From assembly GCA_045536935.1 (NCBI GenBank), contig JAZSOO010000023.1:3651-67650 (forward strand): a DNA stretch of 64,000 nucleotides. Reading direction: 5' to 3'. Below, piece by piece: positions 3,838 to 22,812 of this stretch (position 1 is the first letter of the stretch; each line of letters starts with the position of its first letter). The translations under genes and the position numbers were made by a program. Origin of the DNA: Eubacteriales bacterium (lineage in GTDB: Bacteria; Bacillota; Clostridia; Oscillospirales; CAG-382). The notes below the pieces were generated by a model that had not been told where the DNA came from, searched no databases, and saw nothing but the letters and a program-made list of their open reading frames with translations.

Positions 3838-4347
3838 TGTCATTCCGAGCTTGCGAGGAATCTCACTCAGTGGAAGGTAAAGTTAATGAAACAAAGACAA
3901 AAGAAACAACGAATTGAGATTCTTCACTTTATCACCCCACAAAATTAATTTTGCGGGGACCCCGTCGTTCAGAATGACAGGTTAGAGAGTTGTTGTTTGT
4001 GTTAATTTGATTATTGTAGGGACCGGCGTCCTCGACGGTCCGCCCATAAAACATTGTCGTTTCTTTTGTCTGCAAAACAACAAAAATATCTGATCGTATG
4101 GGAGGGGTTCCCCCTCCCGTTCGTGAAAATATGTTGTTTGTATCAGTTTCGTTGTTTATAGAAATTACATTGTAGGGGAGGGTCTTGCACCCTCCCGAAC
4201 TCGAAAGATTTTGTTGTATCTTATCTCTGTGTTATATGCCTTTAAGTTTTATCCATAGACGATTTATACAACAGATAATCACGGGCACGGGAGGGTTTAT
4301 CACCCCGCAAAATAAATTTTGCGGGGACCCCGTCGTTCAGAATGACA
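3838..4347. repeat. Cluster of REP-like palindromes (TGTCATTC/GAATGACA family and GTAG family) with nested GGGGACCCC elements
   Basis: tgtcattccgagcttgcgaggaatctc (3838-3864) inverted to gagattcttc...gttcagaatgaca (3916-3979); gtagggaccggcgtcctcgacggtccg (4016-4042); gtatgggagggg..ccctcccg (~4096-4119); tgtaggggagggtcttgcaccctcccg (4171-4197); chimeric unit 4287-4347. Confidence 0.85.
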
Positions 4348-4395
4348 GGTTTGGGATTTGTTTTTGGTTCAGATGACAGATGATTTTTTTAAAAT

Positions 4396-4428
4396 AAAAA
4401 AGAGAGGCTTTAACAACCTCTCTTTTTA
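4396..4428. terminator. Bidirectional intrinsic terminator after oppA-like gene
   Basis: aaaaagagagg-loop-cctctcttttt with A/T tracts on both sides. Confidence 0.7.
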
Positions 4429-4435
4429 TTATTAA

Positions 4436-6307
4436 TTATTTATTTTCGTTGCGCTGATTGTTGAGTTCTTCTTCTTTGGAGTTGATCTCACGCCAATCGT
4501 CAAGCTCAAGTTCGGTGAAGTCTACGTAACCAAACCAGCTGTCGGTTTCGTAATCGTCAATTTCGTCGCTTGCAACGAAGCTTCTCGAATAGAAGAATAC
4601 CATTGTTGCGGGGCAGAGTTCTTCAACAAGCTTCTTTTCTGCGTTGTGGAGAATTTCTGCTCTCTTTGCACGGTCCTTTTCGGTAAGAGCCGATTGGATA
4701 AGCTTGGAATAATCTGCGTTGTCGATCTTGGTGTAGTGAGGATTGAAGGTTTCTTCGGTGGTAGCAACGCTGTTGTCAACAACGATACCCGAACCGCTGT
4801 ATTCCTTTGCGAAGGGAGCGAGGTAGGAGAATGCGTCAACCGAGCCGTTAACGATGTTAACACCGATAACGTCGAAATCACTTGTCTTAAGTGCGGTGAG
4901 ATATGCTTCGGGGTCAAGACCTACAAGCTCAACGTTAATGCCGATAGCCTTCCAGTTTTCAGCAGCCTTCTTTGCAGTTTCTTCATAAAGATTTACGTAG
5001 TTAACTTTTCTCGAATAGGTAGAAACGGTAATATCGTTAAGAGGGATAAGGTATGCAACCTTAAGGCTGCCCTTCTTGCTGCCGAGAAGCGATTTTGCCT
5101 TTTCTACGTCAGCGTTTACGCTGTAAAGTTCGCCGCCTTCTTCACGGAAATCGGATTTTCTGTCGGTATTGAATACACCGCCGGGAACGTAGCCGGTAGC
5201 GGGAACTTCGCCGGTTCCGGTCGTTTCGGTAATAGCCTTTCTGTCAAGTGCTGCGGAAAGAGCCTTACGAACGTTTGCATCGGAAAGGAATTCTTTTTCG
5301 GTGTTGAAATAGAATGCAAAGCCGTTAAGTGTCTGCTGGGTTTCGATGTCGTCCTGATATTTCTTGAAAGTTTCCTTGTCAAACTTGCCAAGATAGAATA
5401 CTTCGCCGTTGTCAAAACGGTTTGCTTGGAACTGCTGCTGAGTCAATCCCTTTTCTTCGGGATAGTATTCGGTCTGACCTTCGTAGTAGAGACAGGTTAT
5501 ACGGTAGGGATCAACGTATTCGTCAAGGTCGTCCTTTTCGGGGTTACGCATATAGTATGCGTTACGTTCAAGAACGAGCTTGCAGGCAAACTTACCGCTG
5601 AAGTCCTGTTCGCCTTCCTTCTTTTCACGGGGCATATCCATCGTCTGAACTCTGAATTTGCCGTTTGCAACCATATCGGTTGCGCTTGCTGCCCAGTCAT
5701 CGCCGTTTTTGGAGCAACGGGTGATGATATCTTCACGGGCAGGAACAAGGTGAACGTTTGCAACCTGTTCTGCGAAGAGGTCGCAGTCATATTCGTTTTC
5801 GAAAGTAACTTCAAGAAGGGTGTTGTCAACTGCCGCAAGACCAAGGTCGTCGATAGTGCCGATACCCGATTTTACGTTTCTTGCGCCCTTGATGCAATAG
5901 AGAAGGGAAGCATAGGGGCTATCCATTTCGGGAGAGAGGATTCTGCTCCAAGCATAGATAACGTCGTCTGCGGTAACGGGTCTGTTATCGCTCCATGCGG
6001 TTTCCTTCAATTTGAAGTACATTTTGTGGAGCTGATAGATCTCGTCGTATTTATAGTACCATTCGGTAGCGAGAGCAGGCTGAACCTTGCCGTCCTCGTC
6101 GATGGTAGTAAGGGGTTCGAAAATCAAAGAAAGGATCTGTTCAACGTCGCTGTTAAGCTGAACAACGGCAGGGTCGAGCGTGTAGGGATAATCCGAAAGA
6201 TACATTCGGATATTTGCACCCTTTTCGCCTTCTTCCAATCCGCCGCAGCCAACAAGTGCGCTCAAACAGAACATGAAGCAAAGTGCGAGACAAAGTATTT
6301 TTTTCAT
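4436..6307 (-). CDS. Peptide ABC transporter substrate-binding lipoprotein (family 5, OppA-like), without adjacent permeases
   Basis: Lipobox LVGC, TLDPA, IFEPL, PALA..W, WSD..PVTADD..YAW.R, VRKALSAALDR. Confidence 0.9.
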   Translation of the reverse strand: MKKILCLALCFMFCLSALVGCGGLEEGEKGANIRMYLSDYPYTLDPAVVQLNSDVEQILSLIFEPLTTIDEDGKVQPALATEWYYKYDEIYQLHKMYFKLKETAWSDNRPVTADDVIYAWSRILSPEMDSPYASLLYCIKGARNVKSGIGTIDDLGLAAVDNTLLEVTFENEYDCDLFAEQVANVHLVPAREDIITRCSKNGDDWAASATDMVANGKFRVQTMDMPREKKEGEQDFSGKFACKLVLERNAYYMRNPEKDDLDEYVDPYRITCLYYEGQTEYYPEEKGLTQQQFQANRFDNGEVFYLGKFDKETFKKYQDDIETQQTLNGFAFYFNTEKEFLSDANVRKALSAALDRKAITETTGTGEVPATGYVPGGVFNTDRKSDFREEGGELYSVNADVEKAKSLLGSKKGSLKVAYLIPLNDITVSTYSRKVNYVNLYEETAKKAAENWKAIGINVELVGLDPEAYLTALKTSDFDVIGVNIVNGSVDAFSYLAPFAKEYSGSGIVVDNSVATTEETFNPHYTKIDNADYSKLIQSALTEKDRAKRAEILHNAEKKLVEELCPATMVFFYSRSFVASDEIDDYETDSWFGYVDFTELELDDWREINSKEEELNNQRNENK

Positions 6308-6445
6308 AGTGACCTCCGGACAAAAAATTCCAGTCTTTAATGATTAGATTATAACACTATATTATTAAATAATCAAGTGCGATTTATCTATTTGTGAAAA
6401 CTCACAAAATCCGAACCTTTTAATTGTGCGATTTATCGAGTGCAC

Positions 6446-7345
6446 TTAAAACAACCCTTGGCAGAGCTGAATGATAACACCCGATGCACAGGAAATTATA
6501 TAAAGCAATCCGACCGCAAGAAGATTTTCCTTTAGCCCTCTGTTCACACGGAAAAGAACGAGAAGACCGACACCTGCACTCGTGCAAAGACCTGCGAAGA
6601 CCGAGCCCAAACTTATTGCTCCTTCAACGAACATTCCTGCCAAAATAACCGAGGGCGCACAGTTGGGGATAAGCCCTATCAACGCAGTCAAAAACGGTTG
6701 GAAAACGCTGTCGGTGAGCATAAATTCGCCGATTCTGTCCTCACCGACGAATTCAATGGCGAACGAAAGCAAAAACGTTGCGACAAAAAGGAAAGCAAAG
6801 ACCGAAGACGTGCGCTTGACGGTACATAAAGCGATCGCACGCCAATCGGTATGACTGCAACAATGCTCTTCGCCGATAATTTCTTCTCCTTCGCAGGAAT
6901 CGTCGTGGTGATGACAATGGTGGCAATCTTCGGTTATTATTTTTTTCTTTCCGACAAAAAAGTCTATCGTATAGCCTGCAATGATCGCAACGACGAGTTT
7001 TAAGCCCATAATGATCAAAAGATCTTTGTAGTGCGAAGGGCTTGCAAGCATAATAAGCAATGCTTCGTCCGAAGTGGAAAGAAATATTGCGATAAGCGTT
7101 CCGAGCGTTATAATACGTTTTGCAAAAAAGTTTGCGCCTATGACCGAGAAACCGCATTGGGGTATCAACCCAAGCAATGCACCCGTAAAAGGACCGCTTT
7201 TTTCTGCTTTTTCAATAGCTTTTGCGCTTTTTTGTTCAAGACGGGCTTCCGTAAATTCAAGAAACAGGAACGCCAAAAACAAAAAGGGAAGCATCTTTAA
7301 TGAATCGAAAAAAGAATGCTCGAGCGCATGTAAAAATTCGTGCAT
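6446..7345 (-). CDS. Putative manganese/heavy-metal transporter (ArsP-like permease) with His/Cys-rich loop
   Basis: GALLGLIPQCGFS, FLSTSDEA, GLIPNCAPSV duplicated motifs; CHHCHHHDDSC loop; ATG at 7345. Confidence 0.8.
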   Translation of the reverse strand: MHEFLHALEHSFFDSLKMLPFLFLAFLFLEFTEARLEQKSAKAIEKAEKSGPFTGALLGLIPQCGFSVIGANFFAKRIITLGTLIAIFLSTSDEALLIMLASPSHYKDLLIIMGLKLVVAIIAGYTIDFFVGKKKIITEDCHHCHHHDDSCEGEEIIGEEHCCSHTDWRAIALCTVKRTSSVFAFLFVATFLLSFAIEFVGEDRIGEFMLTDSVFQPFLTALIGLIPNCAPSVILAGMFVEGAISLGSVFAGLCTSAGVGLLVLFRVNRGLKENLLAVGLLYIISCASGVIIQLCQGLF

Positions 7346-7516
7346 AATAAATTCCTTAAAAACGGAGCAACACTCCGAAAATATACAAAATAAATTATAC
7401 AGCAAAGCGATTGTTTGTCAAGAATTTTTTAAGAAACGTTAAATAATTAAATACTTGATATAATAAATAAAATATGGTAAGATGTATGCAAATAAAATGC
7501 ATAACGGAGATGTGTT

Positions 7517-8197
7517 ATGGAAACAAAAACGAAAATGAGTGCACGTGAATGGATAGAAAATCTGTGGTATCACTATAAATGGCTGATAATCTTCGGCGGC
7601 TTGATCTTGGCTTTTCTTATAATAAGCTTGTTCCAGTACGTCGGTTCAAAAGACCCCGACGTTAATATCCTTCACGTCGGACCGATGTATATCTCGCCCG
7701 AGTCGGCAGAAAACCTAAAAGGAAGCGTTGCCGCACTGTCCGAGGACTATAACGATGACGGAGATATAAACGTTGCGCTTCTCGATATAACCGTTAATAA
7801 GTTCGGCAACGAGGACGAGGGTATCGACCCTGTGAATTACGATCAAAACAATAACGGATTAAAACGGTTCCAGACCGAAGTCCGTGCGGGTGATGCGGTC
7901 ATATATCTGCTTGATGAAGAATTTTTTAATATATGTATCGACGAAAACCTTCTTTCTCCCTTGAAAGACGTGGTTCCCGCAGATATTCTTCCCGAAAATA
8001 CGGTCAAGGGCTACGGTGTGAAGATCAGCGATCTTGATGCATATAAATTAAGCGGACTCTCCAACGTTCCCGAAACGGCAATACTTTGCCTTCGCCGTTC
8101 GCCCGATCTCGACCCGATAAAATACGGCAGAACCGTCGAGGTTTGGGAAGGCAACCGCAAAACTTTTGAAAATATATTGAAGTATAAAGCGGAATAA
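7517..8197 (+). CDS. Conserved hypothetical protein with N-terminal membrane anchor
   Basis: ENLWYHYKW followed by a TM helix, then a soluble domain with DYNDDGD; GGAGA RBS. Confidence 0.7.
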   Translation: METKTKMSAREWIENLWYHYKWLIIFGGLILAFLIISLFQYVGSKDPDVNILHVGPMYISPESAENLKGSVAALSEDYNDDGDINVALLDITVNKFGNEDEGIDPVNYDQNNNGLKRFQTEVRAGDAVIYLLDEEFFNICIDENLLSPLKDVVPADILPENTVKGYGVKISDLDAYKLSGLSNVPETAILCLRRSPDLDPIKYGRTVEVWEGNRKTFENILKYKAE

Positions 8198-8284
8198 AAT
8201 GCAAATCATAGCAAATTTCTATTGCAAAACAGTATAATTTGTGGTAGAATAACTCGATTGAAAATTTTTTCGGAGGATTTTAAA

Positions 8285-10486
8285 ATGAGTAACAAAGTTG
8301 TTGCCAAGCAAAAGAGAACAATAATCGTGTCCGTTGTGCTCGCAGTTCTTCTTTTTGCAGGCTCCCTTTTCGTTCTTGTGGACGGCTTGGTTCATATGGA
8401 CGACCCTTATAAACAGTTTGAAGACGTTAATTTCGCAAAAGGATTCGCAACTGCGCTTAAAAAAGCAAGCGTGCGTGATCTCACCCAAGAAGATCTCGAT
8501 AAAGTAGAATCTCTCGTCTACTACGTATCGGTCACCAACGATGCTAACAGCCAATATGCGACCGTAGTTCGTCCCGTTGTTATGCTCGGCTTTAAGGAAT
8601 TTACCGATAAGATCATCGAAAACGAGAATAATAACACGACCTTGTCGGACAACGTTCCCGAAAATTCCTACGTTATTCTCGAACACATTATCACCGAAGC
8701 GGACGACCTTGCAATATTCAAGAATCTCCGTGTGCTCCGTTCCTTCGACCTTTCTGAAGTTTCGGAAATGCAACAGGGTTGCTACTATAACGAGCTTTAT
8801 GCACAGATATACGGTAGCCAAAGCTCCAATATCGTTTCCGTTCCTTTCTCGGATATCGTCAGCGGTTCGGCTCTCAAAGGCCTTAAAAAGCTCGACCAGA
8901 TCTCTTCCTTGACAAAGCTTGAATACCTCTCCCTTCAGTATTCGGGAATAACCTCCCTTGAAGGTATCGAAAAATTCACAAACCTCAAGAAGCTCGACAT
9001 CGGTAACACCGAAATCACCGATTTCACAAAGCTTTCCGAGCTTAAAGAGCTTTCCAACCTTACCATCGTTGCTATGGGCGGCGAAGAAGCTGAAGAAACC
9101 GAAGAAACCTCCGACGTTTCCGATACTTCCGATACTTCCGATACTTCTTCCGAAGAAAAAGAAGAAAAACATACCCATGCAGGTATGACCGATATAAGCA
9201 CTCTTGCAAACCTTACAAACCTCAAGAAGCTCAACTTCTCTCAGAACGCAGTTGTTGATATCAGCGCAATTGCCGGTATGAAGAACCTCGAAGACTTCAC
9301 CGCTATCGGTAACTGCATCGAAAACCTCGATGCTCTTTCGGGTATCACCACTCTCAAGAACGTCGCTGTTTCCGATAACCACATCACCGACATCAAGGGT
9401 CTTGCTTCTGCAGCCAACCTTGAACTTCTCGAAGCATATCAGAACAAGATAACCGATATCAGTGTTCTTGAAAACTGCACAAAGCTTACTTCGGTTAACG
9501 TTAATACCAACGAGATCAAATCTCTCGGCGATTTCTCAAAGCTTCAGGAACTTGCAGTTCTCAATATTTACGGAAACAAGATAACCAGCCTTAAGGGTCT
9601 TGAAAAGTGCAAGAAGCTTACTAATATCGATGCTTACAATAACGAAATTACCGAGATCGGCAACCTCTCCGAACTCGACGAGCTCACCTATATCACTCTC
9701 TACAACAACAAGATAAAAGATATCAACGGTCTTAACGGCTGTGCAAAGCTTGCTACTATCGAAGCTTACAACAACGAATTTGAAGGTGTTCTCACCCTCG
9801 ATAAATGTCCCGAACTCGCAACCCTCAACGTTTACTATGACGAACCCGAAAAGGAAGACGATAAGAAGGACACCGCTACTAAAGACGATGATAAGAAGGA
9901 AGACGACAAGAAGGACGATGCATCGACCGATGCTTCCGAAGACACTTCCGCAGATGCTTCCGAAGAACCCGTTGAAGAACCCGAAACCAAGAAGGGTCTT
10001 ACCGGTCTTGTTATCAAGGGACTTAAGAAGCTCACCACAGTTGATGCACACGGCAACGCGATCACCGCTGTTCCCGACCTTACCGATTGTGAAAAGCTTA
10101 CGACCCTCAACCTCAGCAAGAACCTTGTAACCGACGTTAAGGGCGCTGAAAAGGGCAAGCTTACAAACCTCAACCTTGCTTCTAACAAGCTCACCGATAT
10201 CTCTGCTCTCGAAAAGGTTACAACTCTTACAACTCTTGATCTTTCCGAAAACAATATAACCAATATCGATGCGGTCGGCAAGCTCACAAAGCTCACCAAC
10301 CTCAACCTCAAGAACAACAAGGAACTTGTTTCTCTTAAAGCACTCGACAGCTTCCCGACAACCACTTCGCTCACCCTCAATATCGTTGGTACGAAGATCG
10401 CAGAAAACACCGAAGCTATCAAGGAGATCCAGTCCAAGTACACCACAATGAAGATTACCTACACCGAAACGACCGATAAAAAGTAA
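8285..10486 (+). CDS. Membrane-anchored internalin-like leucine-rich repeat protein
   Basis: N-terminal TM helix; many 22-aa LxxLxxLxLxxNxIxDI repeats; ATG at 8285 after GGAGG. Confidence 0.9.
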   Translation: MSNKVVAKQKRTIIVSVVLAVLLFAGSLFVLVDGLVHMDDPYKQFEDVNFAKGFATALKKASVRDLTQEDLDKVESLVYYVSVTNDANSQYATVVRPVVMLGFKEFTDKIIENENNNTTLSDNVPENSYVILEHIITEADDLAIFKNLRVLRSFDLSEVSEMQQGCYYNELYAQIYGSQSSNIVSVPFSDIVSGSALKGLKKLDQISSLTKLEYLSLQYSGITSLEGIEKFTNLKKLDIGNTEITDFTKLSELKELSNLTIVAMGGEEAEETEETSDVSDTSDTSDTSSEEKEEKHTHAGMTDISTLANLTNLKKLNFSQNAVVDISAIAGMKNLEDFTAIGNCIENLDALSGITTLKNVAVSDNHITDIKGLASAANLELLEAYQNKITDISVLENCTKLTSVNVNTNEIKSLGDFSKLQELAVLNIYGNKITSLKGLEKCKKLTNIDAYNNEITEIGNLSELDELTYITLYNNKIKDINGLNGCAKLATIEAYNNEFEGVLTLDKCPELATLNVYYDEPEKEDDKKDTATKDDDKKEDDKKDDASTDASEDTSADASEEPVEEPETKKGLTGLVIKGLKKLTTVDAHGNAITAVPDLTDCEKLTTLNLSKNLVTDVKGAEKGKLTNLNLASNKLTDISALEKVTTLTTLDLSENNITNIDAVGKLTKLTNLNLKNNKELVSLKALDSFPTTTSLTLNIVGTKIAENTEAIKEIQSKYTTMKITYTETTDKK

Positions 10487-10562
10487 TTTTCAAATAACCT
10501 TCGGGGCTGTTTAATACAGCCCTCGAATTTTGATTAGATATGTATTTTCGGAGGAAATGATT

Positions 10563-11036
10563 ATGCCCGATATGCTTGTCCGTCTTTACGACCTTCCCGA
10601 AACAAGCTCCTTTTATAAAAAACTCGAAGAAAAAGGAATAAAAATACTTCGTCCTATGACACCTAATAAATCCAAAGTTTTAAATTGGATAAGAGAAAAT
10701 TTCGACGGTGATTGGGCAGACGAAGTTTCGACGGCATTTTCTCACGCTCCCGTAAGCTGTTTTATCGCATACGATACTAACGAACGTAAAATTCTCGGTT
10801 TTGCGGCTTATGATTGCACCTACCGTGATTTCTTCGGGCCTACGGGTGTTGCAATCGACCAACGTGGCAACGGAATAGGAAAAGCCTTGTTCCTGCGTTG
10901 CTTAGAGGCTATGCGTGACGAAGGATATGCTTATGCGATCGTCGGAAGTGTAGGACCTGTAAACTTCTATGAAAAAACCGTGTCTGCCGTTATGATAGAC
11001 GGAAGTGACCCGAGCATTTATAAAGACCTTATATAA
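10563..11036 (+). CDS. GNAT family N-acetyltransferase
   Basis: MPDMLVRLYDLP start, FFGPTGV..QRGNGIGKAL acetyl-CoA motif, FYEK. Confidence 0.85.
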   Translation: MPDMLVRLYDLPETSSFYKKLEEKGIKILRPMTPNKSKVLNWIRENFDGDWADEVSTAFSHAPVSCFIAYDTNERKILGFAAYDCTYRDFFGPTGVAIDQRGNGIGKALFLRCLEAMRDEGYAYAIVGSVGPVNFYEKTVSAVMIDGSDPSIYKDLI

Positions 11037-11058
11037 TTAATGAAAGAGGCGAAAACAA

Positions 11059-12135
11059 ATGAGTAAACTCAGAGCCGGTATAGTCGGCGCAACCGGTATG
11101 GTTGGTCAAAGATTTATAACCCTTATTGAAAACCACCCTTATTTTGAAATATCCGCATTGATCGCAAGCCCTTCTTCCGCAGGCAAGACCTACGGCGAAG
11201 CAGTAAACGGCCGTTGGAAGATGAAAACTCCTCTCTCCGACAAAATTGCAAATATGCAGGTATTGAACGCAGAAGATATTGAAAGCGTAAAACCCCACGT
11301 TGATTTTGTGTTCTGCGCAGTAAATATGCCCAAGGCAGAGATCAAAGCCCTTGAAGAAGCTTATGCAAAGGCAGAGATCCCCGTAATTTCCAACAACTCT
11401 GCAAACCGTGGAACCGCAGACGTTCCTATGCTCATTCCCGAGATCAACTATGCGCACAGCGCAATTATCGAATCCCAGAAAAAACGCTTGGGCACCAAGA
11501 AGGGCTTCATCTCCGTAAAGCCCAACTGCTCGATACAGAGCTACGTTCCGGCGCTTGAGCCTCTCCGTAAGTTCGGTATCAAGGCTGTAAACGTAACAAC
11601 CTTCCAGGCGATCTCCGGTGCAGGCAAGACCTTCGATACCTGGCCCGAAATGATCGATAACGTAATTCCCTACATCGGCGGCGAAGAAGAAAAGAGTGAA
11701 AAAGAACCTCTTAAGGTTTGGGGTACGATCGAAGGCGACGCTATCGTTCCTGCAACAAGCCCCGTTATCTCTGCACAGTGCATTCGTGTTCCCGTTGCCG
11801 ACGGCCACCTTGCCGCTGTTTCGGTCAGCTTTGAAAACAAGCCTTCTATCGAAGAGATCAAAAAGGCTTGGGCTGAATATGTCGGAGAAGCACAGAGATT
11901 GGAACTTCCTCTTGCACCTGCACAGTTCCTTACTTACTTTGAAGAAGACAACCGTCCGCAAACCAACCTCGACCGCGACCTTTACGGCGGTATGGGTATT
12001 TCGATCGGCAGACTTCGTGAAGACACTATCTTCGATTACAAGTTCGTTTGCCTCTCCCACAATACCTTAAGAGGTGCGGCAGGCGGCGCAGTTCTCGGCG
12101 CTGAATTGCTCTACCGTCAGGGCTATTTGTATTAA
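11059..12135 (+). CDS. asd: Aspartate-semialdehyde dehydrogenase
   Basis: GIVGATGMVGQRF, KPNCS, QAISGAG, HNTLRGAAGG. Confidence 0.95.
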   Translation: MSKLRAGIVGATGMVGQRFITLIENHPYFEISALIASPSSAGKTYGEAVNGRWKMKTPLSDKIANMQVLNAEDIESVKPHVDFVFCAVNMPKAEIKALEEAYAKAEIPVISNNSANRGTADVPMLIPEINYAHSAIIESQKKRLGTKKGFISVKPNCSIQSYVPALEPLRKFGIKAVNVTTFQAISGAGKTFDTWPEMIDNVIPYIGGEEEKSEKEPLKVWGTIEGDAIVPATSPVISAQCIRVPVADGHLAAVSVSFENKPSIEEIKKAWAEYVGEAQRLELPLAPAQFLTYFEEDNRPQTNLDRDLYGGMGISIGRLREDTIFDYKFVCLSHNTLRGAAGGAVLGAELLYRQGYLY

Positions 12136-12250
12136 TAAACAGCAAGAAAAACCGTAAAAGTTTAGGACTTTTACGGTTTTCTCTTTATTTTCGTTGTTTC
12201 GAACGAAATGAAGAATCTTAATTAAGTACAGCTTTGATTTCGCACACAAC

Positions 12251-13930: not shown

Positions 13931-13931
13931 C

Positions 13932-14786: not shown

Positions 14787-15007
14787 ATCTATCTCCTAAA
14801 TTAAAGCGTATATCAAACGTGTAAATAAACGCTGAGAGCGTATATCAAACAATAAAGCGATGCTTTAGCCGAAATAACTCTTCTTAGCGATTTTAGTTAA
14901 ACTATTTTTGGCTATTCTACATTATCGCAGAATACCTTCGAAAATGCAACACTTTTTCGCAAAAAAACTTGTCAATATATAGAATAATTTGAAATAAAAT
15001 CAAATAT

Positions 15008-15021
15008 TAAGAAAATCTTAA
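15008..15021. promoter_or_regulatory. Putative response-regulator box TAAGAAAATCTTAA (copy 1)
   Basis: Identical 14-mer at 16818-16831; lies at the -35 position ahead of TG-TATAAT upstream of the response regulator. Confidence 0.65.
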
Positions 15022-15079
15022 TGTTTTTTGGGGCTTTAATATGTTATAATCGTTATATACATTTTGCGAGGTGATAAAA

Positions 15080-15769
15080 ATGACCGTTTTGACAGTAGAC
15101 GACGAAAAAGAAATAGCCGACCTCGTTGAACTTATTTTAAAGAACGAAGGATATAACGTTATAAAATATTACGACTCCGTAAAAGCTTATGACGAGATAT
15201 TAAAAAACAGTAATATCGACCTTGCCGTTATCGACGTTATGATGCCGAATATGGACGGATTTGAACTTTGCGCAAAAATACGCGATAATTATAATTACCC
15301 CATAATAATGCTCACGGCACGTGTTGAGGACGTTGATAAGATAACGGGATTAAGCATCGGTGCCGACGATTACGTAACAAAACCCTTCAACCCGTTGGAG
15401 CTTATTGCACGTGTAAAGGCACAACTGCGCCGATATAAAAAATACGGTGCTTCCGACGAGATGACAAAGTGTTATTACGAAAAAAACGGCTTGGTGATCA
15501 ATAAACAGCAGCATACCGTAACCTTGTTTGATAAACCTGTTTTGCTAACACCAACCGAGTTTGATATTCTCTGGCTTCTTTGCGAAAATGCAGGCAAGGT
15601 CGTTTCTTCGGAGGAAATATTCCAAACCGTCTGGAAGGAAGATTATCTCGACAGCAACAATACCGTTATGGTACATATAAGAAGGATTCGTGAAAAGCTG
15701 AAAGAGCCTTCCAAAAACCCAAGAATAATTAAAACCGTGTGGGGAGTGGGATATAAAGTTGAAAAATAA
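15080..15769 (+). CDS. OmpR/VanR-like response regulator
   Basis: VDDEKEI, DVMMP, GADDYVTKPFNPLEL, NNTVMVHIRRIREKL, KTVWGVGY. Confidence 0.92.
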   Translation: MTVLTVDDEKEIADLVELILKNEGYNVIKYYDSVKAYDEILKNSNIDLAVIDVMMPNMDGFELCAKIRDNYNYPIIMLTARVEDVDKITGLSIGADDYVTKPFNPLELIARVKAQLRRYKKYGASDEMTKCYYEKNGLVINKQQHTVTLFDKPVLLTPTEFDILWLLCENAGKVVSSEEIFQTVWKEDYLDSNNTVMVHIRRIREKLKEPSKNPRIIKTVWGVGYKVEK

Positions 15770-16820
15770 CGCAATAAAACGCTATATAACCTATATATTC
15801 GTCTATACCGTCCTCTATTTTCTTTTCGTGGTTGTTATGGACAATCTTTTCGACGGCGTTCTTTTGGAATTTTTATATAACAATCTCTATTTTCGAATAT
15901 TCACACTGATAAACCATAACCGCAGTGCCATAACCTATATCTTTTATGCAATAGGACTTGTTATTATATCGGGCTTGTATATTTTAAAATGCAATAAGCT
16001 TATCAGAATGGCAAGCGAATCCTTTTTGGAAGAGGAATCAAAGGTTCTGTCCGATAACTGTCCTGCGGAATTGCGTGATTTCGGACAAAAGCTGAAGGAT
16101 TTTAAATACACCTTAAAAGAAAACGAGACTGCAAGAATACTTGCCGAACAGCAAAAAAATGACCTTATCGTTTATCTTGCCCACGATTTAAAGACCCCCT
16201 TGACCTCCGTTATCGGATATCTAAGCCTTTTGGAGGAAACACAGGACCTACCCATAGAACAACGTGCAAAATACGTCGGTATCGCTATCGATAAAGCATA
16301 TAGACTTGAAAACCTCATTAACGAATTTTTCGAAATAACACGTCTTAATCTTCAAACGATAGAAGCCCAGAAATCAAAGGTCAATCTAACTGTTTTGTTA
16401 ATGCAGGTCTTGGTCGAATTCTATCCGATGTTCGAGGAAAAAAGACTTAATATCGTGCATAAGGTGGAACCCGAGCTTACGGTCCATGCCGATGCAGATA
16501 AGCTGGCTCGTGTATTCGATAATCTTTTCAGGAATGCCGTTAATTACAGCTATGAAGAGACTGATATAGTCTGCACCGCCTATAAGACCGAAAAAGAGGT
16601 CGTCATAAAGGTTAAAAATAAAGGCGACGATATACCCAAAGAAAAGCTCGACCGCATTTTTGATAAATTCTACCGTGCGGATAACTCCCGACGTTCGGCA
16701 ACGGGCGGTTCGGGCTTGGGACTTGCTTTCGCAAAACAGATAGTCGAGCTTCATAAAGGAACGATAACCGCCTCCTGCGATGACGGAAATACCGAATTCA
16801 CGGTAATTCTGCCTTTGTAA
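15759..16820 (+). CDS. VanS-like intramembrane-sensing histidine kinase
   Basis: Two N-terminal TMs, KNDLIVYLAHDLKTPLTS H-box, NLFRNAVNYS, FDKFYR, GGSGLGL; overlaps the regulator stop. Confidence 0.92.
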   Translation: MKNNAIKRYITYIFVYTVLYFLFVVVMDNLFDGVLLEFLYNNLYFRIFTLINHNRSAITYIFYAIGLVIISGLYILKCNKLIRMASESFLEEESKVLSDNCPAELRDFGQKLKDFKYTLKENETARILAEQQKNDLIVYLAHDLKTPLTSVIGYLSLLEETQDLPIEQRAKYVGIAIDKAYRLENLINEFFEITRLNLQTIEAQKSKVNLTVLLMQVLVEFYPMFEEKRLNIVHKVEPELTVHADADKLARVFDNLFRNAVNYSYEETDIVCTAYKTEKEVVIKVKNKGDDIPKEKLDRIFDKFYRADNSRRSATGGSGLGLAFAKQIVELHKGTITASCDDGNTEFTVILPL

Positions 16821-16831
16821 GAAAATCTTAA
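16818..16831. promoter_or_regulatory. Putative response-regulator box TAAGAAAATCTTAA (copy 2)
   Basis: Identical to 15008-15021; upstream of the C39-like peptidase. Confidence 0.65.
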
Positions 16832-16876
16832 GAATATCTAAATACAAGATTAAAACAAAAAACGACGTAATAAACT

Positions 16877-16913
16877 AAAATACTCCTATCAATAACTGAT
16901 AGGAGTATTTTTT
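16877..16913 (+). terminator. 15-bp hairpin plus T-tract that also contains the RBS of the peptidase gene
   Basis: aaaatactcctatca-ataac-tgataggagtatttt. Confidence 0.6.
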
Positions 16914-17729
16914 ATGAAAAAAGATATGAAAGTATACGTATTTACGTTTGTCGCATTGTTTGCCATTTCCTTCATTCTGTTGCTGTCACAAGCAATAGAC
17001 TATAATGAGGAAATACCGCAAACGAACGGTTCAAATAAAGAAATATCACAAACCGTATCTACCCAATGGCAGGAAGCCGATACGATAACCGCCTTTGCGG
17101 AACAAAATAATATACCAATGAGCGAATACCCCGAAAAGCTATTGGAGCTTCTCGAAAAGAACCCCGAAACAAAAGAGTTTGTTTTTAACTATCCCTTTTT
17201 AAAAAACAAGACATTTAATATTGACCTGAGCGAATATAAAAACACAAATGAAGTTCCGCTTTTAATGCAATGGGATAAACGCTGGGGCTACAGCGAATAT
17301 TCGGGCGGGATAATGGGATTAACGGGTTGCGGTCCAACCTGCCTTTCAATGGTTTCCATACACCTTTTAAACGACACTTCCTATACCCCCCGCTACGTTG
17401 CGGATTATGCTGTTCAAAACGGATACAGCGTAAACGGAAAGGGAAGTGCTTGGAGCCTTATCAAGGAAGGCGGAGAGGCTTTCGGCTTGACCGTAAAAGA
17501 ACTCCCTCTCGTTGAAAGTATGATAATAAATAACCTTAGTGACGGCAACCCCATAATCTGCGTAATGGGCCCCGGCGATTTTACAACGGAAGGCCATTTT
17601 ATCGTTATGACCGATTATATCGACGGCAAGATTAAAATAAACGACCCCAACAGTATCTCCCGTTCCGAAAAGCTTTGGGATCTGTTCGCTATTAAAGACC
17701 AGATACGTAACCTGTGGGTATGTACGTAG
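16914..17729 (+). CDS. Membrane-anchored C39-like (papain-fold) peptidase
   Basis: N-terminal TM; Q.D.RW...Y, GCGPTCLSMV, GDFT..GHFIV, INDPNS. Confidence 0.85.
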   Translation: MKKDMKVYVFTFVALFAISFILLLSQAIDYNEEIPQTNGSNKEISQTVSTQWQEADTITAFAEQNNIPMSEYPEKLLELLEKNPETKEFVFNYPFLKNKTFNIDLSEYKNTNEVPLLMQWDKRWGYSEYSGGIMGLTGCGPTCLSMVSIHLLNDTSYTPRYVADYAVQNGYSVNGKGSAWSLIKEGGEAFGLTVKELPLVESMIINNLSDGNPIICVMGPGDFTTEGHFIVMTDYIDGKIKINDPNSISRSEKLWDLFAIKDQIRNLWVCT

Positions 17730-17807
17730 TAAGAATTTTATCGGTGTTGATTTTTCATATTGTGTTTGTTATAATTGATTATAACCATAAAGAAAGGTTG
17801 TAATGTT

Positions 17808-18530
17808 ATGATAAGATATGAGATAGAAGGTGGAAACCTTCCCGTAGTAATCTGTTATCCCCAAGCAGGCCAATCGCTTTGTACCGAAAGCGGTGCGATG
17901 AGCTGGATGTCGCCCAATATGGAAATGGATACAAACACGGGCGGCGGATTCAAGAAAATGTTCGGACGAATGTTTTCGGGTGAATCTATCTTTATGAACG
18001 AATATACCGCAATCGGAAACGAGGGTATGATTGCCTTTGCCGCAAGCTTTCCGGGAAGCATCATTCCCTACCAAGTAACACCGGGTAACGGTATAATCGT
18101 GCAAAAACGCGGATTTTTGGCTATGGAAAAGGGCTTAGAACTTTCGGTTTATTTCCAAAAGAAGCTCGGCAAAGGCTTTTTCGGCGGTGAAGGCTTTATT
18201 ATGCAGAGAATCAGCGGTAACGGTATGGTATTCCTTGAGATCGACGGCTATTGCAAGGAATATAACCTCGGAGTGGGCGAATCTATCGTTATAGATACGG
18301 GCTATCTTGCCGCAATGAGCGAGACCTGCACAATGGATATTCAAACCGTCAAGGGCGCAAAGAATATCTTCTTCGGCGGCGAAGGCTTGTTCCATACCCG
18401 TGTAACAGGTCCCGGTAAGGTCTATATCCAATCCATGCCCGTAATCAACACCGCACAACGCCTAACGCCTTACCTTCATATAAGCTCGGGCAACGATAGC
18501 GGCGGAATCAACATCAAATTAGGCGATTAA
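17808..18530 (+). CDS. AIM24/TIGR00266 family protein
   Basis: ESGAMSWM, RMFSGESIF, FFGGEGF, FFGGEGLF, GPGKVYIQSMP. Confidence 0.9.
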   Translation: MIRYEIEGGNLPVVICYPQAGQSLCTESGAMSWMSPNMEMDTNTGGGFKKMFGRMFSGESIFMNEYTAIGNEGMIAFAASFPGSIIPYQVTPGNGIIVQKRGFLAMEKGLELSVYFQKKLGKGFFGGEGFIMQRISGNGMVFLEIDGYCKEYNLGVGESIVIDTGYLAAMSETCTMDIQTVKGAKNIFFGGEGLFHTRVTGPGKVYIQSMPVINTAQRLTPYLHISSGNDSGGINIKLGD

Positions 18531-18558
18531 AAACAGATTAATTAACGACGTATAAAAC

Positions 18559-18589
18559 TAAAAGCGAGGTGAACTTCACCTCGCTTTTG
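18559..18589. terminator. Bidirectional terminator between AIM24 gene and the R-M-like gene
   Basis: aaaagcgaggtgaa/ttcacctcgctttt inverted repeat. Confidence 0.75.
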
Positions 18590-20824
18590 TTATTTTATTA
18601 ATTCATATTCGAATAACATTGGTGTAATAGCATTGTTATAATAATTCTTGAGTGCATTATCCAGTTTTCTGATTTCCGAATTTAATGTATTGTATTTATA
18701 CATCATGAAAGGATTGCCTTTCTTGTCTTTTCTTCCACTGTCTATTTTAATGTTTAGTTCTTGCATTATTTGCCACAATCCGTAACGAACATTCTTGTTG
18801 GCTGATTTATATTCTTCTGTTTTAGACGCTTCGAATAATACATCTCTCCAATATTTCAAAAGTGTTTGTTCGGTTTCGGATAACTCCAAACCACCATTCA
18901 AAAACTCTTGCAGCGATTTCCAAGCTAAAGTATCTTCTCGGTCAAAGCATAATTCATTACGATAAAAACGCTTGTCATTGCCATAAAAGGACAGACATTT
19001 GTTTTTAGGAGAAAGAGCAGTATAAAATAGACATTTTTTTAAAAACTCTTTGTTTTTTAAATAAGATCCTTGACCATCATAAGATTTTGAATAGACATCA
19101 GTTTTGTACCATTTATCATAAGGGAAAACACCCGCAATGAACAGTGGCAACTTTTCTAAAAAATTATCAGAGCGTAGATAAAAACCATGACCGTTATATA
19201 GCACACCTCTGACTAACTTAACGGTTTTTCTATCTATTGAAAAAGAATCTGATTGAATGTATCCGATTATATTTTCGTTAAACAGCGGCTTTGAAACAAG
19301 GACCTTTCGTTCATTGGCAATAAACTCGTATCCATCTTTTTCACATATTATACCGTTCGTTTGGTCATTTTGAAAAATACGATTATCGTAAGCTTCGGAT
19401 AATTTATGATACGCTTTTTTTATAGTAATATCGTCTGCGGCGCGTTCTGTTTTATCTACCACTATATCATATGGGGTAAATGTTAGTGCTTCTGTGGAAA
19501 AATCGTTTACATTTTTCCACCATATGCATCCAATAGCAGATACTTGGTTTGCATGAAACTCTTTTCTATTACATAAAAATCCTCCGCAGCATTTTTTATT
19601 AACTAAATTTTGATTTCTCCAATATTTTGTCGGAGAAAATAAAATATAGCTGTCAAGGGGCTTTTTTAAATAATATTTAAATGCGCTCCATATAAACAAA
19701 TTGGCGAGATCGTTCAATACAACCCCTCGGTGTTTGTTTTCGTTTCGCATTTGTTCAATTACAAAACTTTTCTTCCAAATATTCTCTTTCTTTCCTGTGT
19801 TTTGGGATGCTCCGCTCCCTGATTCGCTATAGGGCGGATTTTCCATAAGAATAACAACACAATTTGGATCATTTACTTTTTCGCGTATAAAATCATTTGC
19901 TATCCCTTGTTCATTTTTCTCGGCAGGAATAATATCATATGCTAAAGCATCTATATTTGGAATCACAACAAGGCACTTATCGCCATATTTATAGTTCAAT
20001 ATGGCATATTCATTGAATTCAATAGTCGATAACACACAATGCTTTAATATTTCGTCGGACAGTCCTTCCTCTAAATTTCCCGTTCCGGCACATCTGTCGA
20101 TAATTATATAGTCCATCCCTTTAGGTATTTCTTCTATTGCCTTGAATAGCATCTTGTGCATTTCGTTAACATAAGCGGTTGGAGTGTAATACGCACCTTG
20201 CTCTCTTTGCAAAAGGCCAGGATTCAAACAATCCATAATATCTTCAAATTCAATATTATCCGCTTTAGCATAGGGATAGATTCTATCTTCCAAAATGTTT
20301 GGTTTTCTTATTTCGGCATTTTCACCCTTGATAAACTTATCTTTATCCTGATTGTATTTGTAAAACTGCTGAGATAAGCCAAGAATATTGTTTTTGTCAA
20401 CATGATATTTTACAAAATCCTCACTATTGACCACGGTTAGCAATTCTTGTAAACCAGTACTTGTAGAATAATCGATAGTGATATATTTGGCTTCGGTTTT
20501 ATATGCTTCGTTATTTTTACTTGCTGCACCAAAATAAACTTTTTCGATGTCTTCTAATAAATCAGCAGAATTAAAAATATATGCAGTTTCTCTATTAAGA
20601 TCGTTCAAAATAAGGTTGGCGGGCAATCGTTCGCCACGAATTCGTATACGTGAGGCATATTTTATTGCTTGTGATAAAACTTCATAAATGTTTTTTATGT
20701 CAATTTTGTTTTCGTATAGATTTCCTCTATCTACACCATCTGTATTGTGAGATAAATCGGGGTTGATACCAACACGATTATAAAAGTCTCTTTGTCCCTC
20801 ATATTCATCGTAATATTGCTTCAT
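18590..20824 (-). CDS. Single-chain restriction-modification-like enzyme (type IIG-like: nuclease + N6-adenine methyltransferase + putative TRD)
   Basis: N-terminal TDG...LYENK...Q...Y (PD-(D/E)xK with QxxxY), GAYYTP, IIDRCAGTGNL (motif I), ENPPY (motif IV); visibly more AT-rich than its neighbours. Confidence 0.7.
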   Translation of the reverse strand: MKQYYDEYEGQRDFYNRVGINPDLSHNTDGVDRGNLYENKIDIKNIYEVLSQAIKYASRIRIRGERLPANLILNDLNRETAYIFNSADLLEDIEKVYFGAASKNNEAYKTEAKYITIDYSTSTGLQELLTVVNSEDFVKYHVDKNNILGLSQQFYKYNQDKDKFIKGENAEIRKPNILEDRIYPYAKADNIEFEDIMDCLNPGLLQREQGAYYTPTAYVNEMHKMLFKAIEEIPKGMDYIIIDRCAGTGNLEEGLSDEILKHCVLSTIEFNEYAILNYKYGDKCLVVIPNIDALAYDIIPAEKNEQGIANDFIREKVNDPNCVVILMENPPYSESGSGASQNTGKKENIWKKSFVIEQMRNENKHRGVVLNDLANLFIWSAFKYYLKKPLDSYILFSPTKYWRNQNLVNKKCCGGFLCNRKEFHANQVSAIGCIWWKNVNDFSTEALTFTPYDIVVDKTERAADDITIKKAYHKLSEAYDNRIFQNDQTNGIICEKDGYEFIANERKVLVSKPLFNENIIGYIQSDSFSIDRKTVKLVRGVLYNGHGFYLRSDNFLEKLPLFIAGVFPYDKWYKTDVYSKSYDGQGSYLKNKEFLKKCLFYTALSPKNKCLSFYGNDKRFYRNELCFDREDTLAWKSLQEFLNGGLELSETEQTLLKYWRDVLFEASKTEEYKSANKNVRYGLWQIMQELNIKIDSGRKDKKGNPFMMYKYNTLNSEIRKLDNALKNYYNNAITPMLFEYELIK

Positions 20825-20854
20825 AATTAATCACCCCTTTTATAGGACTAAAAA

Positions 20855-20893
20855 GTAACAAAATGTTACATTTTCATTGTAACAAATGGTTAC
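20855..20893. promoter_or_regulatory. Twin palindromic operators GTAAC-N5-GTTAC between divergent genes
   Basis: GTAACaaaatGTTAC (20855-20869) and GTAACaaatgGTTAC (20879-20893). Confidence 0.7.
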
Positions 20894-20914
20894 AATAAAA
20901 TCAAGGGGGATTTA

Positions 20915-21118
20915 ATGATTGGTCTAAAACTTATACGAAAACAGCGCAAATTAAATCAACAAAAAGTCGCAATGGATTTAAATATATCAAGAGAGGCGTT
21001 ATCCTATTACGAAAATGGAAAACGCGAACCTTCGTTGGCGTTACTTGTTGCTATGTCGAAATATTTTAACGTTTCGATTAATTATTTGATCACCGGAAAA
21101 GAATTTATAAAAAGATGA
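20915..21118 (+). CDS. XRE/Cro-family helix-turn-helix regulator
   Basis: LKLIRK..LNQQKVA..LNISREALSYYENGKREPS...YFNVSINYL. Confidence 0.9.
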   Translation: MIGLKLIRKQRKLNQQKVAMDLNISREALSYYENGKREPSLALLVAMSKYFNVSINYLITGKEFIKR

Positions 21119-21160
21119 ATCTGCCTTCTTACTACGGAAAAGGCAGATTTTTTTATATAA

Positions 21161-21190
21161 GTATAAATCCCCTCCTTTTTACAAATAATA
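21161..21190 (+). promoter_or_regulatory. Forespore SigG/SigF-type promoter for spoVT
   Basis: GTATA-N18-AATAATA; spoVT is a known SigG-regulon gene. Confidence 0.55.
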
Positions 21191-21225
21191 ACACCACAAA
21201 TGTAAAAACAAGGAGAAATTTATAT

Positions 21226-21762
21226 ATGAAAGCAACAGGAATTGTACGCCGTATAGACGACCTCGGCAGGGTAGTTATCCCCAAAGAAATACGCCGTACT
21301 ATGCGAATACGTGAGGGCGATCCTCTCGAAATATATACCGAAAACGACGGAAGCGTGGTCTTCCGAAAATATTCGCCCGTTGGCGAATTAAGCCGAGTTT
21401 CGGCGGAATATGCCGAAGCGATGAACCGTTCAAGCGGAATCCCGATAGCGATCTGCGACAGAGACAGCGTTATTGCCGTTGCGGGACTTCCTCGCAGGGA
21501 CTATCTTGAAAAACCGATCTCAAGCGGACTTTCGGGCGTTCTTTCAACACACAGACCCTATTCCGCAGCCGAAAAGAACGGCAACGTAACAGTTATCGAA
21601 AACGGCGGTGAAGTAAGCTATCTTTCGCCCATCGTAAGTGAAGGAAGCGTTATCGGTGCGGTTATGTCGCTTAAGCAAAGCGGAAAGGTTTCGGACACCG
21701 GCTCCGAAAAGAAGCTTGTCGATACGGGCGCATACTTTATGTCATCGCAAACAGAAATATAG
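21226..21762 (+). CDS. spoVT: Stage V sporulation protein T (AbrB domain + GAF-like domain)
   Basis: MKATGIVRRIDDLGRVVIPKEIRRTMRIREGDPLEI..KYSP, CDRD, PI..EG.VIGAV. Confidence 0.92.
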   Translation: MKATGIVRRIDDLGRVVIPKEIRRTMRIREGDPLEIYTENDGSVVFRKYSPVGELSRVSAEYAEAMNRSSGIPIAICDRDSVIAVAGLPRRDYLEKPISSGLSGVLSTHRPYSAAEKNGNVTVIENGGEVSYLSPIVSEGSVIGAVMSLKQSGKVSDTGSEKKLVDTGAYFMSSQTEI

Positions 21763-21767
21763 AATTG

Positions 21768-21856
21768 CCCCAAGAAGTCTTACGACTTCTCGGGGACCCC
21801 AACACCACCACCCCAAGAAGTCTAACGACTTCTCGGGGACCCCAACACCACCCCAA
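21768..21856 (+). repeat. Tandem free-standing GGGGACCCC hairpin elements (2 full copies plus a remnant)
   Basis: ccccaagaagtc-ttac-gacttctcggggacccc (21768-21800) repeated at 21811-21843, linked by aacaccacca. Confidence 0.85.
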
Positions 21857-21898
21857 CAAAAGAAAGGTTATTGCAACAGTCAGCAATAACCTTTTTTC

Positions 21899-22699
21899 TT
21901 ATAAACCAAGCAATCCTTCTGCGTTTTTGTGAAAAACCATTTCAAGTGTTTCCTCGGAAAGACCAAGCTTGTTCAAAAATTCAATAATCTCCGCAGGGCT
22001 TGCCCAGGGAGCGTCCGAGCCGAAAAGTATTTTCTCGTGCGGGTGCTTTTCAAAAATCTTTTTGCCTTGCTCAACGGTAATTCCAATGCGTTCACAGCAA
22101 AAAGCCGTGTCAAGATAAAGATTCTTTCCGCAAAGCTTCTCAATAACCTCGTCCCAATGGCTGACACCGCCCAAATGAGCCGCAACAAGAATAAGACTTG
22201 GGAATTTGTCAAGCACGTTAAGGATAGCATCGGGCGTGGCGTGTATCTTGTTCGGAGAAACGGGGTCGTATCCCGTGTGGATAACAACGGGCAAGCCCAT
22301 TTCACTTATTGCCGATAGGATAGGCTCAAACCTTTCATCGTCAAACTCAATACCCAAATAATCAGGGTGGAGCTTAACACCCTTAATTCCCTTGGATTTA
22401 AAGTATAAAAGCTTTTCTTTTGGATTATCGTTGTCGGGGTGGAGCGAGCAAAAGGGAATAAGCTCTTCCGTGCTTTCGTTAACCTCAAGCGCAAAGTTGT
22501 TCACCTTTTCTTCCTGCTTTGCGTTTGTAACGGTATTAAGAACAACAGCTTTGTCAATGCCGTCTTCCTTCATAAGCTTTATAAGCCCGTCTGCCATTCC
22601 GTCAAAAGCAACGGGCAGACCTGCAGTTGCCTGAAGCGATGCTATTGCCCTTGGAGCCAACGCATCGGGGAAAATATGTGTGTGAAAATCGATTATCAT
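21899..22699 (-). CDS. Amidohydrolase_2 family metal-dependent hydrolase
   Basis: IDFHTH, GVKLHPDY, VIHTG, AAHLGG, LFGSDAPW. Confidence 0.88.
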   Translation of the reverse strand: MIIDFHTHIFPDALAPRAIASLQATAGLPVAFDGMADGLIKLMKEDGIDKAVVLNTVTNAKQEEKVNNFALEVNESTEELIPFCSLHPDNDNPKEKLLYFKSKGIKGVKLHPDYLGIEFDDERFEPILSAISEMGLPVVIHTGYDPVSPNKIHATPDAILNVLDKFPSLILVAAHLGGVSHWDEVIEKLCGKNLYLDTAFCCERIGITVEQGKKIFEKHPHEKILFGSDAPWASPAEIIEFLNKLGLSEETLEMVFHKNAEGLLGL

Positions 22700-22779
22700 A
22701 AAACGTTACCTGCTTTTTGTTTTGCAGTACCAATTATATGCCTTGATTTCTGCAATGTCAATAATGTGGCAAATAATTA

Positions 22780-22812
22780 CCCCAAGAAGTTGTTAGACTT
22801 CTTGGGGACCCC
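22780..22812 (+). repeat. Free-standing GGGGACCCC hairpin element
   Basis: ccccaagaagt-tgttag-acttcttggggacccc next to the hppA terminator. Confidence 0.8.

Follow-up and report, generated by a model that had tools for sequence, protein, structure and literature searches.

Very small gene-less hairpin repeats, probably mobile, in uncultured Clostridia of the herbivore gut

Introduction

Few parts of bacterial genomes are as poorly understood as small palindromic repeats. Most of the families described so far are, to our knowledge, proteobacterial and rely on RAYT enzymes. Here we describe a hairpin repeat that lies in seven copies in a 64,000-nucleotide stretch of DNA from an uncultured member of the Clostridia (Eubacteriales bacterium, GenBank assembly GCA_045536935.1, contig JAZSOO010000023.1); the window means this whole stretch. 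The stem of the element stands on a CCCC/GGGG foot and is followed by an unpaired tail. A reading of the window made from its letters alone (the original prediction) had proposed a separate, structure-targeting mini-element moved in trans. Having followed the element through its genome, related genomes and phages, we lean towards seeing in it a family of very small, gene-less hairpin DNA repeats that behave as mobile DNA in uncultured herbivore-gut Clostridia.

Several described systems come close. Insertion sequences (IS) of the IS200/IS605 group and their gene-less derivatives (PATEs) carry subterminal hairpins that are read as folded single strands, their asymmetry being provided by imperfect pairing, and they have no terminal inverted repeats in the usual sense. 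Other insertion sequences, such as IS1397 and examples from the IS110 family, target the loop or body of REP elements (repetitive extragenic palindromes). REP elements of the GTAG/CGTC type are presented, in the parts of Di Nocera et al. (2013, PMC3733652) that deal with their size and location, as extragenic palindromes of 20-40 bp, present in tens of copies and mostly in convergent or co-directional regions. Section 7 of the same paper reports some REP families 'inserted within' other palindromes, section 16 describes CGTC REPs as having no dedicated transposase, and the Background mentions IS insertion into REPs. REPINs, as introduced in part of Bertels and Rainey (2011, PMC3116915), are non-autonomous short hairpin repeats that exist as populations inside a genome and whose movement is attributed to factors acting in trans.

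The element resembles REPs in being small, extragenic and palindromic, in occurring in tens of copies and in carrying an unpaired tag at one end, and it resembles CGTC REPs in that no dedicated transposase was found for it. Unlike REPs, it has the tag ACCCC (GGGGT on the opposite strand) instead of GTAG or CGTC, lies singly or in direct tandem and not as inverted dimers, varies freely in its stems within one genome, shows no link to RAYT genes, and recurs as one module of a longer element in phages. With REPIN/RAYT systems it shares a non-autonomous, short, hairpin-forming unit and a within-genome population; its unit, however, is no inverted doublet (the direct tandem period is 40-45 nt; inverted pairs were not formally counted), and no single-copy RAYT gene is flanked by it. 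Like IS200/IS605 elements it is strand-asymmetric through imperfect pairing, but it consists of one hairpin of ~40 nt and not of hundreds, its 5' flank is loosely A-T-Y-A instead of a fixed tetra- or pentanucleotide, it has no strand bias, its carriers hold no TnpA and no copies lie beside IS200-type genes. Compared with the insertion sequences that target REPs, the invader here is a 30-nt hairpin without a transposase gene, and no IS110-type gene was found. The tests that define REPs, REPIN-RAYT systems and IS200/IS605 derivatives each fail for this repeat, which falls outside all three definitions. Nor does it end as an intrinsic terminator would: the hairpin is followed by ACCCC and G/A on the forward strand and by T-R-A-T on the reverse, with no T/U run, and copies stand in both orientations relative to genes (one was picked up by a loose terminator scan).

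REPs nested in palindromes and REP families without a transposase are thus already in print, in the sections of PMC3733652 cited above; the element itself is uncatalogued. A full-text literature search with the 9-mer on both strands and with nested REPs and hairpins returned nothing relevant; the REP family lists in the supplement of Di Nocera et al. lay outside its coverage and might hold a related family.

Results

A fixed frame around a variable, covarying stem

Within the window, the pattern CCCC-N(13-27)-GGGGACCCC has six exact matches, against none in each of 100 shuffles; the seventh copy is a variant that ends in AGGGACCCC, with one mismatch. A covariance model retrieved all seven copies and no other match in the window at E<=0.01. 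All seven form the proposed hairpin as single-stranded DNA (z -1.4 to -5.6), and for five of them none of 200 shuffles folded equally well. When the window was scanned against Rfam, a tRNA alone reached the gathering score and the element had no match.

The shared CCCC/GGGG-ACCCC layout claimed by the original prediction therefore stands, with six exact copies and one variant. The empty and filled hosts that it had named, of a GTAG type and of a TGTCATTC type, lie where it had placed them, and the three copies that it put next to terminators do adjoin terminator-like hairpins (Table 1). Its copy coordinates held except for one start, 4302, which becomes 4303. Its 5' motif is better written A-T-Y-A, these positions being 78/64/85/79% conserved over 122 copies from two genomes. 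It had also placed four copies at the apex of a host palindrome: three do sit there, and the fourth, at 4303-4331, is a chimera whose flanks are not an intact palindrome.

The family is not limited to the window. The source genome (G000) is a draft assembly of 1.49 Mb in 36 contigs, with a G+C content of 43.7% and 96.4% completeness by marker genes; the window is positions 3651-67650 of its contig 9 (C9). A hairpin-aware scan combined with a regular expression found 67 copies in this genome, and an independent covariance model also gave 67. All but one are intergenic, the remaining copy partly overlapping a predicted open reading frame (ORF), in a genome of which rough gene calls cover 88%. 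The copies carry no gene, as had been proposed. By type of intergenic region, 44 are co-directional, 21 convergent and 1 divergent; in the co-directional regions 23 copies are oriented with the genes and 21 against them.

The core of the element measures 29-34 nt, and the unit including its flanks (A-T-Y-A on the 5' side, G/A-W-H on the 3' side) ~42 nt. Stems of several types, among them AAGAAGTC, A/GCAAAAC (in two loop forms) and AAAAA(C/T)GC, are all set in one frame. Thirty-five distinct copies from the window and from a relative, G048, were aligned. In the 12-bp helix 89.5% of cells were paired, compared with 74.7% in shuffles (0/500 reached the observed value) and 29-57% in slid controls. 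Seven of the 12 pairs show changes on both sides and four, the CCCC/GGGG foot, are invariant; the aligned copies are related, so that these counts reflect perhaps ten stem types and not 35 independent events. Structure and not sequence is what is conserved, in agreement with the original prediction.

The pair next to the CCCC foot is unusual. Of 122 copies, 82 have A.C there, 23 have A-T and 15 have G-C; the A.C of the forward strand is a G.U on the opposite strand. The invariant parts are the CCCC/GGGG foot, the adjacent non-Watson-Crick position and the unpaired ACCCC tail. A 9-bp near-palindrome, GGGG(A/T)CCCC, does not change. The flanks are looser: the commonest 5' tetranucleotides among the 122 copies are ATCA (39), ATTA (16) and AACA (9), and the four bases after the ACCCC, loosely G/A-W-H-R, are most often GACA (24 of 121), GTAG (6) or GTCG (6).

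Presence and absence at matching sites in a close relative

G048 belongs to the same genus (1.0 Mb, 64% complete, 140 contigs) and has 62 copies; flanking sequences are mostly 90-98% identical to those of G000. Sites were anchored by both flanks and counted only if both were at least 88% identical. Roughly 9 of the 22 comparable G000 copies were present at the G048 site, three of these nine with point mutations in the frame, and 4 of the 21 comparable G048 copies were present in G000. The original prediction had staked itself on filled and empty states of matching sites, and such polymorphism is seen between the two genomes.

Within the window, 84 nt comprising the tandem pair are missing from G048 between flanks 97-98% identical, the cluster at 12251-12431 is missing or replaced, and the copy at 22780-22812 is present in both genomes. 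Other clean pairs of present and absent sites were found for G000 copies at C14:14083, C28:25596 (two copies), C9:110167 and C9:96133, and for G048 copies at contig 3:3534, 62:1348 and 49:3579. G000 and G048 both have a copy at C28:27081, but of different stem types. At the site that corresponds to window 30077-30105, G048 has a 120-135-nt cluster. Its three hairpins are a CTCCCC/GGGGAG host (its loop contains an element copy), a CAAAACC hairpin and a GTAGGACGC REP. This cluster recurs at a second G048 site, and both matching G000 sites are empty; clusters of several hairpins therefore move, or are lost, as units.

Contigs of related strains from four gut-metagenome runs, compared over window positions 3500-23100, often stop at element copies. 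One spans the 22780 copy, and there are odd joints between the copies at 3935 and 4303, one of which removes the DNA between them. This joint suggests recombination between copies; at 88% likeness it is too noisy to count as evidence.

Copies lie in the loops of unrelated hairpins and against terminators

Of 117 copies from the two genomes, 18 are enclosed by a perfect outer stem of 6 bp or more, compared with 4.65 when flanks were paired with shuffled partners. A location at the apex of larger hairpins, which the original prediction had noted, is therefore above the expectation of shuffled flank pairings. A further 27 of the 117 copies lie in an imperfect TGTCATTC host, which brings the nested total to roughly 40%. 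Hosts of the GTAG type occur in G000 in 10 filled instances, all ten in one orientation, and ~35 empty ones; for the TGTCATTC host there are 9 filled instances, again all in one orientation, 10 empty and 2 other. Filled hosts have probably also spread as composites.

One stem type is especially informative. Nineteen of its 20 copies have an identical 29-nt core, and the 20 occupy free sites and the loops of seven or more unrelated host hairpins. Since the same core recurs in at least seven host types, host-linked inheritance cannot account for its spread, and the element is separate from its hosts, as had been claimed. Where a copy of the AAGAAGTC type is free, its 3' end abuts the A-tract of a terminator hairpin; such copies stand between a stop codon and its terminator or, from the other gene's view, just beyond the T-tract.

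Solo forms and tandem arrays

At three matching sites, a full unit is present in one genome and only A-T-Y-A-CCCC-G in the other; the hairpin, the GGGGA of the GGGGACCCC part and one CCCC are missing exactly between the CCCC repeats. The solo motif AT[CT]ACCCCGA occurs 10 times, singly and in tandem, compared with once for a reversed control. The number of solo repeats differs between G000 and G048, and so does the copy number of the full-unit tandem arrays. We read the solos as footprints of deletion between CCCC direct repeats. Alternatively, a 29-nt piece may have been inserted at CCCC. As for a DDE-type miniature element (MITE), with terminal inverted repeats and a target-site duplication of fixed length, the CCCC on both sides of the hairpin plus GGGGA could be read as a 4-bp duplication; whole-unit insertions, however, carry their own flanks.

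Tandem runs of 10-12-nt solos stand before terminators at G000 C15:55928-55963 and C31:36300-36330, outside the window. A type III toxin-antitoxin RNA array and a CRISPR-like array were considered for the tandem copies and rejected, most copies being single, nested or scattered and the spacers ~10 nt.

The hairpin is a module of a longer element in phages

A degenerate pattern of the common stem types gave 42 matches in 41 loci of IMG/VR. In 35 of these 42 (30 distinct), the reverse complement of the hairpin begins a conserved element of 105-107 nt: the 5' stem is followed by a purine-rich stretch and a second covarying hairpin, with a long-range helix closing round it, and the upstream flank is variable. 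Sixteen of the 24 pairs in the three-helix consensus show compensatory changes, and further G.U pairs lie on the same strand. Twenty-four of 27 phage copies have a G.U at the odd position that adjoins the foot. The hairpin is thus a module of a longer, phage-borne element; this long form had no Rfam match even at E<=1.

In one locus the phage element stands between capsid and head-tail connector genes. At other loci it was found where a Clp-type protease ORF starts, beside a GH18 gene and a YQBQ-like gene, and within a C-5 cytosine methylase ORF (loci L320/L335). Of two near-identical phages, one has a methylase ORF that continues through the insert and the other a frameshifted one. In all six Pfam-checked ORFs (5 loci) the element is on the coding strand; a tally by ORF length over all phage loci gave 23 against 12, the high G+C content yielding long spurious ORFs. 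The three reading frames are open across the element in 11, 13 and 10 of 27 copies, and none is kept. A model of the long form recovered just the hairpin part in G000, and ~100-nt matches with weak outer pairing in one congener.

A 13-nt module resembling GTCGCTTCGCTCT lies directly 5' and/or 3' of some genomic copies (G000 C2:53939, C5:53240, C5:59185 and C32:26198, outside the window); its opposite strand looks like the purine-rich stretch after the hairpin of the phage element.

Distribution in the Clostridia

The frame was found in 44 of the 61 genomes of the genus, G000 included, with a backwards-read control giving 0-2 per genome; several of the 17 genomes without it are 95-98% complete. 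In two other families of the order, the frame is retained around stems that are unrelated and GC-rich (the stems of G030 and G040 come from the match table only and stand outside the alignments). A class-level sample of G000 and 250 other genomes gave mostly single matches, no commoner than in the control, and clear hairpin copies in a few genomes of other families (8, 9 and 3). An exact search with one stem type returned 100 matching stretches from a collection of species-representative genomes; among the 80 listed, nearly all come from metagenome-assembled genomes titled Clostridia or Eubacteriales, of ruminant and rabbit gut. The tandem pair had no match in the GenBank phage and plasmid collections.

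Features of the window

Coordinates are collected in Table 1. The region 3830-4350, flanked by genes for a peptidase M50 and a solute-binding protein, is a mosaic like a bacterial interspersed mosaic element (BIME), with at least four different hairpin repeat types in 520 nt; it includes further GTAG-headed palindromes at ~4017-4045 and ~4095-4118. Outside the window, the only large repeats of G000 lie at C23:9600-10900, C32:56350-57220 and C6:52500-53500; they are 85-88% self-similar, and these large, internally repetitive stretches look like repeat-domain coding regions.

Table 1. Copies of the element, host hairpins and adjoining features (window positions, except for the phage loci)
Feature	Position	Strand	Basis
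Element core in loop of TGTCATTC-type host (3916-3979)	3935-3963	+	exact pattern, fold, model match 3921-3965
Element copy with chimeric flanks: GTAG-type arm left, TGTCATTC-type arm right	4303-4331	+	exact pattern, fold, model
Element copy inside TGTCATTC-type host (12251-12316)	12270-12298	-	exact pattern, fold, model
Variant copy (AGGGACCCC) inside GTAG-type REP host (12363-12431)	12380-12410	-	sequence, fold, model
Tandem pair, copy 1; stop codon of SpoVT/AbrB-type gene 5 nt before	21768-21800	+	exact pattern
Tandem pair, copy 2 (43-nt period); then A-tract and terminator hairpin	21811-21843	+	exact pattern
Free-standing copy; 3' end abuts A/T-tract of H+-pyrophosphatase gene terminator	22780-22812	+	exact pattern
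Empty TGTCATTC-type host hairpin	3838-3864	no strand	sequence
Empty GTAG-type REP host	4171-4203	+	sequence
Bidirectional terminator-like hairpin adjoining tandem pair	21863-21894	no strand	terminator scan
Terminator-like hairpin of pyrophosphatase gene, adjoining copy 22780-22812	22819-22849	-	terminator scan
Site empty in window; multi-hairpin cluster in G048	30077-30105 (G000 C9:33727-33755)	no strand	G048 contig 132 near 9025
Phage element, examples from IMG/VR loci L300-L340	L310:1427-1534, L320:1427-1534	-	IMG/VR match

Discussion

The strand asymmetry of the A.C/G.U position, together with the invariant foot and the invariant tail, points to recognition of one folded strand. If the repeats are mobile, as we are inclined to think, some factor may read the folded single strand, most likely the one starting GGGGTCCCC, on which the odd position is a G.T/G.U wobble. 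Copies would be placed where DNA is single-stranded or hairpin-shaped, that is, in the loops of REP-type palindromes and at the foot of terminator hairpins, presumably by an enzyme supplied in trans. Once inserted, a copy could travel on as part of a composite with its host. Slippage could multiply it on the spot into direct tandem arrays, and deletion between the two CCCC repeats could remove the hairpin, leaving a solo footprint of 10-12 nt.

A number of results weigh against a mobile element. The search for a mobiliser covered targeted families in draft assemblies, where the lack of a RAYT match does not prove that the gene is absent. The Y1 transposase family PF01797 had no match in the 96.4% complete draft of G000. 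It was found in 21 of the 61 genomes of the genus, being absent from the richest carriers of the element and present in element-empty genomes, and no element copies lie beside these PF01797 genes. A divergent RAYT-like Y1 protein of 176-188 aa is encoded in 15 of the 61 genomes, 10 of the 35 that are rich in the element and 5 of the 26 that are poor in it, and so does not track it. Among five element-rich genomes, DUF559 was found in two and TnpB, weakly, in one, whereas reverse transcriptase and IS110 were found in none. IS-like multicopy DNA, DDE-type included, was not found in G000. The original prediction had looked to an HUH or RAYT enzyme as mobiliser and to a RAYT or DUF559 gene that would accompany the element; neither idea is upheld, Y1 being absent from G000 and neither gene tracking the element.

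Nor is a strand bias seen: the G-rich strand has 15 of 34 copies and the majority gene strand 11 of 28, where a transposon that uses lagging-strand single-stranded DNA would be expected to show a bias, although GC skew is weak in this draft assembly. The junctions, too, lack precision. Loop bases of the host (4-5 nt) have been replaced and not split, with GCAAG becoming TTATTA-element-GTAG and the 4-nt loops of another host likewise gone, and several bases beside the insert differ between G000 and G048. Events driven by IS200/IS605-type enzymes are seamless, unlike these ragged ones, and the simple insertion implied by the original prediction is not supported. Since composites may spread, there may be fewer independent nesting events than nested copies. 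Finally, gain cannot be told from loss site by site, other genomes being too distant for intergenic alignment, and many of the differences between G000 and G048 could be losses.

Genes of known repeat systems were seen in the genus in other settings. A true REPtron, a RAYT-like gene flanked by GTAG REPs and not by the element, lies at G069 contig 46:1-1200. In G048 the RAYT-like gene is broken and interrupted by REPs (contig 71:2522-3530), within a 1-kb cassette that is missing at the matching G000 site (C14:51587-51594, outside the window). The genes boxed in by element copies encode amidohydrolases, an aminopeptidase-like, a phosphoesterase-like and an acidic small protein, none of them transposase-like. 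Signals of the DNA-uptake, KOPS or SRS type were also considered and set aside, there being only ~65 copies and no strand polarity.

Several of these points would be expected if no dedicated enzyme were involved and the repeats came and went by replication and repair acting on palindromes, through template switching, slippage between CCCC repeats, gene conversion among copies of one host repeat, and unequal recombination. Such a process would fit the imprecise junctions and the failure to find a mobiliser among the families tested, and also the different tandem copy numbers of the two genomes, the loss of the hairpin exactly between CCCC repeats and the copy that is chimeric between two host types. 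We nevertheless hold it to be unlikely: it leaves unexplained an identical 29-nt core at the apex of at least seven unrelated hairpins that have no microhomology in common, and a CCCC...GGGGACCCC frame that stays fixed, wobble included, across families and phages despite the change of stems. An explanation that starts from the phage form would make the repeat primarily an RNA, transcribed from the strand starting GGGGUCCCC; the phage form would be a functional or self-processing RNA, and the short copies its hairpin domain, either kept, for example for transcript stabilisation, or decayed. The G.U at the conserved odd position, the further G.U pairs on that strand and the compensatory changes in the three helices speak for an RNA. 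So do the coding-strand position in the checked ORFs and the presence of 105-107 nt without a kept frame inside a cytosine-methylase ORF, frameshifted in one of two near-identical phages. However, the short copies do not favour either orientation with respect to co-directional genes, ~40% of them lie inside other repeats and some beyond terminators, the five rich genomes lack a detectable reverse transcriptase, and Rfam holds no match; a primarily RNA nature thus appears distinctly improbable to us.

The repeat might also be no selfish element at all but a binding or signal site selected by the host, read as GGGG(A/T)CCCC by a nucleoid, termination or restriction-modification protein. An invariant 9-bp near-palindrome, copies that adjoin terminators at gene ends and a frame kept across the class are what such a site would show. 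Against it, the 17 genomes of the genus without copies include ones that are 95-98% complete, most sites are not common to the close relative, many copies lie in the loops of other selfish repeats, and the solos that have lost the hairpin retain no palindrome. We accordingly rate a host-selected site as very unlikely, and return to mobile hairpin repeats as the reading that we favour.

The phage element is the most interesting lead. Tentatively, and with more doubt than belief, we suggest that phages and gut Clostridia may have in common an undescribed class of structured mobile elements, with the hairpin as its recognition module. The three-helix phage form would then be the complete element and the genomic hairpins its minimal derivative, mobilised in trans; an enzyme family not so far tied to transposition would act on both in the form of a folded single strand, RNA or DNA. 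The phage form in any case provides a handle: it sets the same stem in a covarying three-helix element that is able to sit inside a methylase gene.

The element is a near-minimal mobile unit, if mobile it is, with a sharply defined, strand-asymmetric signature, a turnover faster than that of the surrounding sequence and no link to a known transposase. It offers a clean case in which to ask how hairpin repeats move and why they pile into each other's loops. Its repeats break metagenome assemblies and vary between strains, which makes them useful markers.

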